A DNA stretch of 58,965 nt from Candidatus Woesearchaeota archaeon (GTDB lineage: Archaea > Nanobdellota > Nanobdellia > Woesearchaeales > UBA10216). Positions 1,060 to 58,965 of this stretch are shown in pieces. Numbering within the stretch: position 1 is the stretch's first letter; each line of letters begins with the position of its first letter. Where the stretch lies: NCBI GenBank assembly GCA_002688315.1, contig NZCN01000009.1, positions 1 through 58,965 on the forward strand. Reading direction: 5' to 3'. The notes under the pieces were generated by a model that searched no databases, was not told the DNA's origin, and saw only the letters and a list, made by a program, of their open reading frames with translations. The position numbers and the translations under genes were made by a program.

Positions 1060-1635
1060 ATTTTTATCAGAATTAATTTCTTCATTAGAAGTTGTTTCCT
1101 CAGTTGAAGGTTTATCTTCAGAAGGTTTTTGCTCCTCTGGCTTAGGCTCTTCAATCTTAAACTTTTCCTTGACTTCATCAGCGTTTTTCAGGTCAAAATA
1201 ATTAAAGAAGCGCTCTGTGAGTTTAAGCAATTTAGTTCTTCCATGCTTTTCTCTGCTGATAAAGCCTGTAGATTCGAGCTCAGAAAGATGGTCGTAAGCC
1301 TTGTTTGTCCTTACTTTGATGATATCTGACTGCAGAACAGGCGCTTTCCAGGCAATTACTGCAAGAGTCTCCATCATTGTTCTTGTAAGCTCTGTTTCAG
1401 CAACAATTTTTCTTACTACGTTAGTGTATTGCTCGCGAACTGTTAGTTTCCAACCGTCGCCTTCATCCATCAGCAACAGCGAGGAGTCTTTATTGTCATA
1501 ATCATTTTTTAACTGCTTAAGCTGTTCAGCAACAGTTTCAGGAGAAGTACGGCATATCTTTGAAACCTCTTCAACAGTCATCTTCTTTCCTGAAGAAAAC
1601 AACACAGCTTCAACCTTGTTTTTGATATCTTCCAT
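1054..1635 (-). CDS. scpB: SMC-Scp complex subunit ScpB
   Basis: VEAVLFSSG, METLAVIAWKAPV.QS.IIKVR and T.RFFNYFDL motifs. Confidence 0.93.
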   Translation of the reverse strand: MEDIKNKVEAVLFSSGKKMTVEEVSKICRTSPETVAEQLKQLKNDYDNKDSSLLLMDEGDGWKLTVREQYTNVVRKIVAETELTRTMMETLAVIAWKAPVLQSDIIKVRTNKAYDHLSELESTGFISREKHGRTKLLKLTERFFNYFDLKNADEVKEKFKIEEPKPEEQKPSEDKPSTEETTSNEEINSDKNL

Positions 1636-1662
1636 TTTTTATTGTATTTGCAAAGGTAGTAA

Positions 1663-2250
1663 TTATATCTTTTCCCAAAAATTGCCGTTCTTCTTAATAA
1701 GCTTTTCCTGAGTAAAGGCCTGCATGAATGATTCAATCTGCTTTTCATTTATTCCAATTATTTTTGATACTTCAGATGTTGTTTTCCTGCTTTCCAGTAT
1801 TAGCAGCAAAAAGTTCTTCAGAAGATTTGCAGAGTTCTTCTCAAGAATCTTGTTTTTGGCATTAACATCCTTCAGCTTAAAATCAATGTTATGCAAGGAA
1901 GTAAGCATGTCATTAACAAAATTTGAAACATCTGTTGAAGGAATTTTGAAATCTTTAGGTTCACTAACCTCAATAGAAGAAGGCAGATAGTCAAAGCATA
2001 TTCTTGTAAGAACTGTGAAATCTTTAAATAAAATATCAAGCTCTGCAAACGTTGAAAAAAGCTTATCTTTTTCTTTTGGAGGGTTAACCTCACCTGATAC
2101 TACATCAACTTCTTCTTCATCCTTTAATCGCTTAAGAACCAAACGAAGAGTCTCCTCAACATGCTCTTTCGGAGTGCCAAGTATCTCCAGAATCATCTTA
2201 CAGCGCAAATTTCCTTTCTGCACCTTTTCTTCTATCTCCTGCTGCTCCAT
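1663..2250 (-). CDS. conserved archaeal hypothetical protein, possible C-terminal winged helix
   Basis: 195 aa; EILG.PKEHVE and FDYLPSSIEV motifs; co-oriented with scpB. Confidence 0.7.
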   Translation of the reverse strand: MEQQEIEEKVQKGNLRCKMILEILGTPKEHVEETLRLVLKRLKDEEEVDVVSGEVNPPKEKDKLFSTFAELDILFKDFTVLTRICFDYLPSSIEVSEPKDFKIPSTDVSNFVNDMLTSLHNIDFKLKDVNAKNKILEKNSANLLKNFLLLILESRKTTSEVSKIIGINEKQIESFMQAFTQEKLIKKNGNFWEKI

Positions 2251-35107: not shown

Positions 35108-35238
35108 GCGGGGGTAGCTAAGTCCGGCTAAAAGCGATAGACTCAAGAAAGTTGAGTGGTGAGCGAAAGCAATGATCGCCCATTTATGCGGAATCTATTC
35201 CCTTAGTGGGTTCAGGGGTTCAAATCCTCTCCCCCGCA
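35108..35238 (+). tRNA. tRNA-Leu(CAA) with a 45-nt intron at 37/38 (35148-35192)
   Basis: Acceptor GCGGGGG/CCCCCGC; anticodon arm ATAGA-CTCAAG^A-TCTAT; long variable arm; GGTTCAAATCC. Confidence 0.9.
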
Positions 35239-56793: not shown

Positions 56794-57447
56794 TTAAAAC
56801 TCATCCATCTTTTTCTGCTTCTTCATTGCAAGCATTTTCTTATAAGGAGCCCATGTTTTCCTGAAGATATCAGGATGTTTTTCAGCGTTTTCCTTCAAAA
56901 ACTTGGCTGTTTTCGGATCTGCCATGTATCCAGAACCAAAGTCTCCTGCTTCTTTTTTAATTTTTTCTATTTCTTCCTCTCTTGTAACCTTTGCGAGTAT
57001 GGAAGCAGCAGCACACTCAACGTAATTTAAGTCTGCTTTATGCTCAACAACAGCATCAACCTTTTTGTTGTCAAGCAAGTTTAGCAAGTATTTTTTGTAA
57101 GCACTAACATTGTTGCTCGGACAGTCAATTATAATTTTATCCGGCTTTAGTGCATTAATTATCTTGGCAGAAGTCTGAGCTTCAAGCCAGTTAAGATTTA
57201 AGTCATCAGATTCTAATGCTGCGTCTATTTCTTTTGGAGATACTACAAGTATCTTATGTTTTTTAACAATAGAATTTATTTTCTTGAACAAAGCAACTCT
57301 TTTTTTTTGCGATAATAATTTAGAATCTTTCACTCCAATGCTTTTCAAACTCTCAATGTCTTCTTCGTCCACCAATACGCCTGCCATTACCATGCTTCCT
57401 ATCAATGGACCTCTAGCCGCTTCATCAATTGCTACTGTTAAAACCAT
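56794..57447 (-). CDS. rnhB: ribonuclease HII
   Basis: IDEAARGPLIG, GVKDSK, EHKAD, AAASILAKV.R and DFGSGY motifs. Confidence 0.95.
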   Translation of the reverse strand: MVLTVAIDEAARGPLIGSMVMAGVLVDEEDIESLKSIGVKDSKLLSQKKRVALFKKINSIVKKHKILVVSPKEIDAALESDDLNLNWLEAQTSAKIINALKPDKIIIDCPSNNVSAYKKYLLNLLDNKKVDAVVEHKADLNYVECAAASILAKVTREEEIEKIKKEAGDFGSGYMADPKTAKFLKENAEKHPDIFRKTWAPYKKMLAMKKQKKMDEF

Positions 57448-57525
57448 AAACTATCAGTGTGAGAAGCAGTTTTTAAAGTTTTAGCCTAAAGATTTATAAA
57501 TCAATCTAAGGTTCTTTTGCTTTAT

Positions 57526-57682
57526 AGCGGAATAGGGCAGAATCTGCAACACGAGTTGTAGTTGTCCAACTAGGAGTGCCCGATGGGCTCATAACCCATA
57601 GGTCGCTGGAAGTTCAATAGGAACTAGCGAATTCAAATTAGTGAATGTTTTGGCATTTACTATGGGTCTCCAGCTTCCGCTA
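57526..57682 (+). tRNA. initiator tRNA-Met(CAT) with three introns (57541-57569, 57610-57631, 57638-57668)
   Basis: Splicing gives the 75-nt AGCGGAATAGGGCAG|CTAGGAGTGCCCGATGGGCTCATAACCCATAGGTCGCTGG|TTCAAA|TCCAGCTTCCGCTA, with an A1-U72 pair and GGG/CCC anticodon stem. Confidence 0.88.
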
Positions 57683-58870
57683 CTTTTGAGCCAAAGCGAG
57701 TATTCGCTTTGGCTTTTTTTTAATTGCATAAAATTTTCTCTGTAATTTGTCAACTTTAATTAGTTCTATTTTGTTTTTATTTATTAAACGATTTAAGACA
57801 TCTCTTACAGTAGCATTATTTATTTTTAAATTTCGTGTAATTTCATTTCGGTAACTGGTTTTGCTACGTTGTATATAAGAGAATATTTGTTGTTCATTAA
57901 GTTCAGGATTTGTTCTTAGTCTAGTAATATTAACGCTATTCTTCAGTTCTCTTGCTTTCTTTCGACCTACTTGTGTTACAAAATATCCTTTTTTATCAAT
58001 AGAAAGATATCTTTTTTGAATAAGTGTTGTAATCCTAGCATGGATAGCACGTCTACAAAGATAATTAAAGAGCTTATGTACGTCTCTTATGCTGAAAAAT
58101 TTTTCTTTTAAATCTAAAAGTTTTACCAAAGTTATTTCCCATGCTTTTGACTTAAAATTCTTAACAACATCCTCTAATCTTTTTTGATGTGATTTCAGAG
58201 CAAAGCCTATTCTTAGAAACTTAGTTACATTTTCTTTATCTCCAAAATAAAGCATGTATTTGTAACCGTAATCTTTTATATAATACTTTAAGATTTTTGA
58301 ACGTATATCAAATTTTGTGTTTAATAATTTACATAGTTCTTGCAGATACGATAAATCAACACTATGAAATCTGACATCGTTCCCTTTCCTGTAATCATAT
58401 ACTGATCCTTCCATAGCGAAAGCATAACGTAAATAAGTAATCACAACATTTTCTGGAGAGTTCCAAATCCATTTCGGAATTCTAGCATCTTCATCAGATT
58501 TATGAATATCTAAACAAGAATGTAAAAATCTAGAAAAAGTACTTCTTGAAATGTGTAACATTAAGCAACCATTCTTTTCAGTAATTCTCCCAGATATGCC
58601 GAAATATTTGTAACATATATCTGCAAACTCTTTTACTTTTTGCAAATCTTTCTTTTGCGAAAACATAACAGAAGAATAATTTTTCCCCACACACCCATCT
58701 AAAATCATAGCTGCTATTTTCGCTAAATCTTCATTCAATATTATCGGAAGTTTAATGTAAAAAGGGTATGCTTTACCGTATTGCAAACAAACGGTTCCAT
58801 TCTGTTCAGAATAATTAAGCTCTTTCGGAATATCTTTCTTTTCAATTTTAAGGTATGTTGTTTGATACAT
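57680..58870 (-). CDS. free-standing LAGLIDADG (DOD/intein-type) endonuclease-like protein with C-terminal winged-HTH domains
   Basis: LAKIAAMILDGCV and IPKWIW...YLRYAFAMEGSV motifs; HTH-like RNEITRNLKINNATVRDVLNRL; GGAGG SD before ATG 58870. Confidence 0.78.
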   Translation of the reverse strand: MYQTTYLKIEKKDIPKELNYSEQNGTVCLQYGKAYPFYIKLPIILNEDLAKIAAMILDGCVGKNYSSVMFSQKKDLQKVKEFADICYKYFGISGRITEKNGCLMLHISRSTFSRFLHSCLDIHKSDEDARIPKWIWNSPENVVITYLRYAFAMEGSVYDYRKGNDVRFHSVDLSYLQELCKLLNTKFDIRSKILKYYIKDYGYKYMLYFGDKENVTKFLRIGFALKSHQKRLEDVVKNFKSKAWEITLVKLLDLKEKFFSIRDVHKLFNYLCRRAIHARITTLIQKRYLSIDKKGYFVTQVGRKKARELKNSVNITRLRTNPELNEQQIFSYIQRSKTSYRNEITRNLKINNATVRDVLNRLINKNKIELIKVDKLQRKFYAIKKKPKRILALAQK

Positions 58871-58965
58871 TTTATTCTCCTCCAAAAACCTCAATCTAAC
58901 GTTGAGATTTCTTGCACTTGTTGAAAGAAATCTCATAGTTTGGCGAAGAGGACTTCTTAGCCAAG

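Follow-up and report, generated by a model that had tools for sequence, protein, structure and literature searches.

The window, which is the whole 58,965-nucleotide stretch analysed, contains an initiator tRNA-Met gene that is divided into four exons by three introns (Table 1). On the evidence of sequence and folding models, this is very probably the sole functional gene for initiator tRNA-Met in the ~0.9-Mb genome of a marine Woesearchaeal (DPANN) archaeon, and it has three BHB introns that would be removed by protein enzymes, intron 2 likely before intron 3. Transcription would probably start from the TATA-box-like element upstream and yield a precursor of ~157 nt. No RNA data set was among the sequencing runs listed for the organism, and two small metatranscriptome runs of the sample that gave the best DNA match returned no records over 57200-58000 of the window, a result with no bearing on expression. 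The genome, rated 99.7% complete, is assembled into 15 contigs that total 912,474 bases, and the sequencing runs containing the organism are labelled as marine or seawater metagenomes.

Table 1 Coordinates of the initiator tRNA gene, its flanking elements, the candidate splicing enzymes and the loci used for comparison (C, contigs of the window's genome)
Feature	Sequence	Position	Strand	Details
TATA-box-like element TTTATAAA	Window	57493-57500	+	33 nt upstream of tRNA position 1; putative archaeal promoter
Initiator tRNA-Met gene	Window	57526-57682	+	4 exons and 3 introns
Exon 1	Window	57526-57540	+	15 nt; acceptor 5′ strand, positions 8-9, D-stem 5′ strand, A14, G15
Intron 1	Window	57541-57569	+	29 nt; tRNA position 15/16 (D loop); central helix GGGC/GTCC, 4/4; bulges AGa, aaC; inner hairpin 7 pairs, -7.4 kcal/mol
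Exon 2	Window	57570-57609	+	40 nt; remaining D arm, anticodon arm with CAT, variable loop, T-stem 5′ strand
Intron 2	Window	57610-57631	+	22 nt; tRNA position 53/54 (T loop); central helix CGCT/AGCG, 4/4; bulges GGa, aaT; inner hairpin 5 bp, -2.8 kcal/mol
Exon 3 (micro-exon TTCAAA)	Window	57632-57637	+	6 nt; T-loop positions 54-59
Intron 3	Window	57638-57668	+	31 nt; tRNA position 59/60 (T loop); central helix TTCA/TGGG, 4/4 including two G-U; bulges AAt, tcT; inner hairpin 10 bp, -8.6 kcal/mol
Exon 4	Window	57669-57682	+	14 nt; position 60, T-stem 3′ strand, acceptor 3′ strand, discriminator A
Terminator-like hairpin, then T run	Window	57688-57721	+	12 pairs; 6 nt past the gene; putative terminator
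ORF with LAGLIDADG-like domain	Window	57680-58936	-	418 aa
Second intron-bearing tRNA	Window	35108-35238	+	131 nt
Other CAT tRNA	C8	705-844	-	Two introns
EndA	C5 and C13	34471-34932 (C5), 1-165 (C13)		About 175 aa
RtcB	C14	42966-44290	-	Two open frames
Five-intron orthologue	L069 (genome G010)	1501-1709		Minus-oriented locus
Five-intron orthologue	L076 (genome G014)	1501-1712
Four-intron orthologue	L056/L082 (genome G001)
Four-intron orthologue	L059 (genome G003)	100-266
Four-intron orthologue	L079 (genome G018)

The joined exons form a 75-nt sequence that is called as tRNA-Met(cat) by ARAGORN, and its canonical cloverleaf is the minimum-energy structure given by RNAfold (-31.8 kcal/mol). The first-pass annotation had described a canonical archaeal initiator tRNA interrupted at positions 15/16, 53/54 and 59/60, with a third exon of only six nucleotides, and all of the coordinates and motifs of that description are present in the sequence. 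The acceptor stem (AGCGGAA/TTCCGCT) is a perfect 7 bp followed by the discriminator A, CCA is not encoded at the 3′ end of exon 4, and the D loop has two extra bases relative to raw tRNA numbering. The spliced 75-mer is closed by an A1:U72 pair, and its anticodon stem contains three G:C pairs in a row (29-31/39-41); we take these features to be the marks of an archaeal initiator tRNA. A canonical-site intron is absent from the gene.

In the BHB motif, each strand consists of a flanking helix, four central bases and a 3-nt bulge that is cut after its second base. Central-helix pairs were counted between exon bases -6 to -3 from the 5′ splice site and intron bases -6 to -3 from the 3′ splice site, with G-U pairs allowed. 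Counted in this way, each of the three introns has a complete central helix together with an inner hairpin and 3-nt bulges, exactly the geometry that had been proposed for them. The intron-side flanking helix (h′) is present in all three introns. The outer, exon-side helix (h) is limited to ~2 bp in intron 1 and is absent from intron 2, and since a proper outer helix is missing, these two introns are of the relaxed HBh′ form. In intron 3, h is the 5-bp T stem (GCTGG/CCAGC), the strands of which become adjacent only once intron 2 has been removed. A blastn-short search of the three introns against the genome returned only the introns themselves at meaningful E-values, with no intron copies and no trace of an origin by transposition.

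Among 36 distinct initiator genes compared (described below), a TTTATAWA octamer starts 32-34 nt upstream of the gene in 22. The search for terminator-like hairpins gave one site, whereas shuffled sequences gave 0.3 on average. A tail made up of a GC-rich hairpin and a T run was also seen downstream of the gene at five other loci (L069, L076, L079, L083 and L054), with a different sequence each time; this tail looks structurally conserved, as a bacterial-style terminator-like element in an archaeon. The ORF on the opposite strand carries a LAGLIDADG-like domain (PF14528, E 1.3e-08), lies in DNA with a G+C content of 24-33% and ends 3 nt inside the 3′ end of the tRNA gene. In the congeners, the gene downstream of the initiator tRNA is a different one, on the plus strand. 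The ORF of the window may be a homing-endonuclease-like insertion beside the tRNA gene.

Detection of the gene and the tRNA set of the genome

The unspliced gene was missed by ARAGORN, both with and without the intron option, and by Rfam at the gathering score. An Rfam search of a 311-nt stretch at E<=10 gave nine weak matches, none of them to a tRNA, so the expectation of the first-pass annotation that standard scans would probably miss the gene proved correct for ARAGORN and Rfam. A blind finder of our own was run, without the coordinates of the first-pass annotation, on both strands of 383 intergenic stretches, 156,752 nt in all. Skips of 11-80 nt that resembled a BHB were accepted if they had a 4/4 central helix and an inner or outer helix, and paths with up to four skips were retained if the spliced product had a T arm with conserved loop bases, a 6-of-7 acceptor match and a full-length ARAGORN call. 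At the initiator gene, exactly the three introns listed in Table 1 were recovered. The finder returned 32 tRNA loci in real intergenic DNA, and none in either of two dinucleotide-preserving shuffles or in the reversed sequence. When ranked by the fewest introns needed, 13 of these loci required none, 15 one, three two and one three, the only three-intron locus being the initiator gene, which with its three introns is more than a chance arrangement.

An initiator-type anticodon arm occurs once in the genome, as does the 5′ exon motif, so the check for another initiator gene that had been suggested turned up no second copy of either in this 99.7% complete assembly. ARAGORN with introns called 29 tRNA genes, none of which has a CAT anticodon. 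A further CAT tRNA, with two introns, was found by the blind finder on contig C8 (Table 1), and looks like the elongator tRNA-Met because it has a G1:C72 end pair. ARAGORN and Rfam together gave no Met, Asp, Lys or Tyr tRNA, and those for Asp, Lys and Tyr were found by none of the methods used on the genome (ARAGORN, Rfam and the blind finder); because these three are missing from the set, more disrupted tRNA genes are probably hidden in the genome. Incomplete tRNA sets in DPANN archaea were attributed to unidentified disrupted genes by Kaneta et al. 2018, whose sample included one Woesearchaeota genome (PMC5829648). The initiator gene of the window is a concrete case of such a hidden gene, and it shows why DPANN tRNA sets look incomplete.

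Other tRNA genes were missed or mis-called by ARAGORN alone, for example at C8:705-844 (-), C12:45886-45970, C15:2279-2363, C14:21323-21420, C14:35404-35493, C8:2221-2336 and C12:96727-96828. Among them, the elongator Met and Ala(ggc) have two introns each, and 12-nt introns interrupt the T-arm region of Val(gac), Val(tac) and Arg(gcg); Gly(tcc) and an additional His(gtg) are further examples. The window itself holds a second intron-bearing tRNA (Rfam, 43.3 bits over 131 nt), which ARAGORN calls as tRNA-Leu(caa) with a 34-nt intron at an unusual position and for which the blind finder gave no solution.

Candidate splicing enzymes and the predicted order of intron removal

One EndA gene was found (86 bits against PF01974). 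It is split by a contig break between C5 and C13, the ends of which overlap by 99 nt, and the two contigs are therefore adjacent in the genome. The best solved relative of the protein is the N. equitans alpha subunit (E 1.7e-33), although the 6-residue insertion that this subunit has before the catalytic His is absent, and the alignment with the M. jannaschii alpha4 enzyme is gap-free in both parts. No second EndA homologue was detected at E<0.85 among 5,488 ORFs of at least 50 aa, or at E<=10 in Pfam six-frame searches, which suggests that, a very divergent beta subunit aside, the genome encodes a single alpha-type EndA. An RtcB ligase is also present (514 bits). Its profile positions 26-426 and 1-25 lie in separate open frames ~30 nt apart, and this two-piece arrangement could reflect a frameshift, an error in the sequence or the insertion of a short segment close to the N-terminus.

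From these components we infer a conventional cut-and-join route, in which the four exon bases preceding the last two would pair with four bases near the 3′ end of the intron, leaving two 3-nt bulges at which the single EndA would cut, and RtcB would then join the exon ends. According to one study, relaxed HBh′ motifs need an (alpha-beta)2 or epsilon2 EndA, or an EndA with a specificity loop (PMC5829648); introns 1 and 2 are of this relaxed form, yet only a single alpha-type EndA gene was found. The same source (Kaneta et al. 2018, PMC5829648) associates the alpha4-type EndAs of DPANN archaea with more tRNA disruption and ascribes their broad specificity to a loop named 'L3'. The EndA studied here aligns without gaps to that of M. 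jannaschii and has no insertion of the six-residue N. equitans type.

Folding of the full precursor gave pairing probabilities of 0.98-1.0 for the central helices of introns 1 and 2 (helices 1 and 2), about 0 for that of intron 3 (helix 3) and 0 for the T stem, with helices 1 and 2 and all three inner hairpins forming together. The T stem cannot form while intron 2 is present because helix 2 borrows bases 48-51. With intron 2 removed, the probability of the T stem was 0.9-1.0, and the intron 3 hairpin was presented in a 7-by-7 internal loop, which is the exact frame for helix 3 and its two bulges. Helix 3 itself had a probability of only 0.0-0.08 even in this state, and recognition of intron 3 would therefore have to be enzyme-driven. 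When intron 3 was removed first, the probability of helix 2 dropped to 0.0-0.04, because the T stem wins. Neither the temperature (15 or 37 °C) nor the presence of intron 1 altered this outcome, and the central helix of intron 1 had a probability of 0.96-1.0 in every splicing state. In the thermodynamic model as a whole, helices 1 and 2 stand at about 1 and helix 3 at 0.08 at most.

The clash between intron 2 and the T stem noted in the first-pass annotation is borne out by these probabilities, in which helix 2 and the T stem are mutually exclusive. Its further claim, that splicing should be sequential, stands in so far as folding favours removal of intron 2 first, the order itself being a prediction. 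Intron 1 would be removed independently of introns 2 and 3, and intron 2 would most likely be the first of the T-arm pair to go; the T stem could then form and complete the helix-bulge-helix-bulge-helix frame for intron 3. Such a stepwise route would keep the 6-nt exon attached, because the hexamer is never free on both sides. On the basis of the folding model, we consider this order, with intron 2 before intron 3 and intron 1 independent of both, to be the likely one. It is less probable, though a serious alternative, that the gene is real and spliced with no obligatory order, a broad-specificity EndA cutting the three relaxed motifs independently while the pieces, the hexamer included, are held in an endonuclease-ligase complex. 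Helices 1 and 2 and the three inner hairpins do co-form in the full precursor, helices 3 and 2 do not compete for bases, and one tRNA of Cyanidioschyzon merolae has three introns, two of which can be lost in either order (PMC3728597). However, if both T-loop introns were cut before ligation, the hexamer would, judging from the structure, be left with no base pair to the tRNA body. The collapse of helix 2 to 0.0-0.04 after removal of intron 3, and the full outer helix of intron 3, which exists only after intron 2 has gone, likewise speak for removal of intron 2 ahead of intron 3.

Comparable genes are known, and the gene of the window is an archaeal multi-intron BHB tRNA of a kind already described. 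The tRNA genes of the Thermoproteales are reported to carry up to three short BHB introns at non-canonical positions, with the tRNA-Glu(UUC) of Pyrobaculum calidifontis and the tRNA-Pro(UGG) of P. islandicum as three-intron examples (PMC4390854, PMC4033280, PMC8450103). Sequential splicing of archaeal tRNAs is also in print, some second motifs forming only after removal of the first intron (PMC8450103), and the gene of the window resembles the Thermoproteales in this respect. It shares with them short non-canonical BHB introns, a predicted removal by EndA and ligase, and invisibility to ordinary tRNA finders. Unlike the Thermoproteales, which are hyperthermophilic Crenarchaeota with an alpha-plus-beta EndA pair and a Crenarchaeal loop, its lineage is a marine one within the DPANN and its genome has a single alpha-type EndA, with no heterotetrameric (alpha-beta)2 EndA carrying the Crenarchaea-specific loop found in that genome. 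It differs further in that there are no copies of its introns elsewhere in its genome, and in that members of its family exceed three introns. A eukaryotic parallel is the nuclear tRNA-Ile(UAU) of C. merolae, whose three BHB introns interrupt the D arm, position 37/38 and the T loop, with a preferred order of removal that tracked BHB stability by RT-PCR (PMC3728597). C. merolae differs in the composition of its endonuclease, and its tRNA-Ile(UAU) gene has one intron at the canonical site, whereas the gene of the window has none there.

Because the initiator tRNA is indispensable and its gene single copy, every protein of the cell would require a single 157-nt transcript to be cut and joined three times in succession. 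The gene offers a testable set of substrates for two questions, namely how relaxed non-canonical motifs are processed in DPANN archaea that have one small EndA, and whether mutually exclusive helices encode a splicing order.

Introns in related initiator tRNA genes

Matches to exon 2 with at most three mismatches were found in four other genomes among the 40 relatives searched, and relatives with the exon 2 core are labelled as Woesearchaeota, Nanoarchaeia and Nanoarchaeota. The 45 loci with the core were reduced to 36 distinct genes, with L015 and L037 (odd 5′ parts) and L041 (cut by a contig end) set aside; the core pattern excludes genes with introns inside positions 18-48. Half of the genes (18/36) have no intron at 15/16, 53/54 or 59/60. 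A single intron is present in 13, at 15/16 in six, at 53/54 in four and at 59/60 in three, and four genes have two, at 15/16 and 53/54 (two genes), 15/16 and 59/60 (one gene) or 53/54 and 59/60 (L026). Only the gene of the window has all three, and the three sites are thus used in every combination. L026 has the same 6-nt exon between its two introns.

The central helix is conserved at each of these sites, with four of four pairs in all 10 of the genes with a 15/16 intron, in six of the eight 53/54 introns (three of four pairs in the other two) and in all six 59/60 introns. The exon strand of the 53/54 helix falls in the variable T stem and is tracked by the intron strand, in the exon/intron versions CGGT/GCCG, CGCT/AGCG, CGTT/GACG and CAGT/GCTG. 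These double compensating changes are the strongest evidence that the helix is under selection, and conservation of the sites while the intron sequence drifts with compensating changes is the behaviour expected of BHB introns. Two of the loci set aside carry unusual introns. The intron of L015 is at 13/14 in the D stem, two bases ahead of 15/16. In L037, an intron in the D loop is accompanied by an aberrant 5′ end with no recognisable acceptor strand nearby, and this locus could be a split gene or have an acceptor-stem intron.

A search with the 5′ exon motif was used to reach genes of the family that fall outside the core pattern. The motif was present in 22 of the 26 family genomes, once in each apart from one spurious extra match (G011a), which scored 6 and gave no tRNA, and which serves as a single negative control. 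The strict intron finder failed on the genes of the congeners, in which the short 37/38 introns and some of the 59/60 introns have poor inner hairpins. To resolve the family genes, each was aligned with the mature template and skips were permitted only where the sequence was compatible with a BHB, a method that leans towards the template. For 16 family genes, the spliced product was called as tRNA-Met(cat) and had exactly the canonical fold, and none of these genes was intron-free. Outside this count are G004, G011b and G041, which gave no clean tRNA-Met call, and G005, G016 and G022, which have doubtful boundaries in the 37-47 region. One intron was found in four of the 16 genes (G008, G009, G015 and G017), two in three (G006, G007 and G019), three in four (G002, G012, G024 and the window's genome, G000), four in three (G001, G003 and G018) and five in two (G010 and G014). 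Nine positions are used in the family (15/16, 20a/21, 29/30, 37/38, 45/46, 46/47, 53/54, 58/59 and 59/60).

Both five-intron genes are interrupted at 15/16, 29/30, 37/38, 45/46 and 59/60. In that of G010 the exons are 15, 16, 8, 8, 14 and 14 nt long, and the central helix is 4/4 at four of the five introns. The spliced products of the four- and five-intron orthologues are perfect 75-nt tRNA-Met(cat) cloverleafs. In the three congeners, only the 59/60 intron is held in common with the gene of the window. G002 has introns at 29/30, 37/38 and 59/60 (the last placed at 58/59 by the template alignment), while G001 and G003 have introns at 29/30, 37/38, 46/47 and 59/60 (hand-set coordinates). The 59/60 intron of G002 is homologous to intron 3 of the window, with one T-A to C-G compensation in the hairpin, and its central helix has only two of four pairs in the register of intron 3. 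Species of one genus thus have almost disjoint intron sets, a near-complete turnover.

The surprise of the analysis lies outside the window, in relatives with four or five introns, which is above the published maximum of three. The statement of the first-pass annotation that triple-intron tRNAs are known mainly from the Thermoproteales matches the literature consulted, but multi-intron initiator genes are common in this Woesearchaeal family. No archaeal tRNA gene with more than three introns, and no description of Woesearchaeal initiator tRNA introns, was found in a full-text search that had most subscription journals outside its coverage, and the four- and five-intron relatives would raise the known ceiling of intron load per tRNA gene. 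On balance, we lean slightly towards the view that the single initiator gene of the family is a hot spot of BHB intron gain and loss, with up to five introns and exons reduced to 6-8 nt, in which all introns would be processed by one plain alpha-type EndA lacking the insertions to which relaxed specificity has so far been attributed, and in which an order of removal would be built in where motifs overlap.

These comparisons also bear on whether the gene of the window is what it appears to be. It is most improbable that it is a decaying pseudogene, with initiation served by another tRNA. The blindness of standard finders to the gene would suit such a reading, but the exons are undamaged and combine into a perfect cloverleaf, every BHB helix has 4/4 pairs, a promoter-like box is present at a conserved distance, and neither a further initiator-type arm nor a further 5′ exon was found in the genome, rated 99.7% complete. 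Orthologues that carry different introns are just as intact, and they too are single copy. We regard as equally improbable an assembly artefact, in which the gene would be a chimera of several strains' initiator genes joined across a shared exon 2. Public contigs from samples with the organism do break at exon 2, their loose ends being versions of the gene from other organisms, and among the contig pieces listed none covers 57632-57658, six further pieces being unlisted; one loose-end version has a similar intron 2 and lacks intron 3. The contigs of runs X1 and X2 gave identical tables and are probably one data set. A chimera is, however, difficult to reconcile with acceptor strands (AGCGGAA/TTCCGCT) and a T stem (GCTGG/CCAGC) that match across the supposed joints, with an intron 2 helix strand (AGCG) specific to the gene's own CGCT exon bases, with flanks that are syntenic with the congeners (80-84% identity upstream), or with the homologous intron 3 of the congener G002. 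A functional three-intron initiator gene is therefore the preferred reading.

The loose contig ends at 57572-57615 are of interest in their own right. They show a version of the gene with an intron 2 very like that of the window, in which the T loop runs straight into the T stem with no intron 3, and such loose-end versions point to presence or absence of introns at the level of populations or species.
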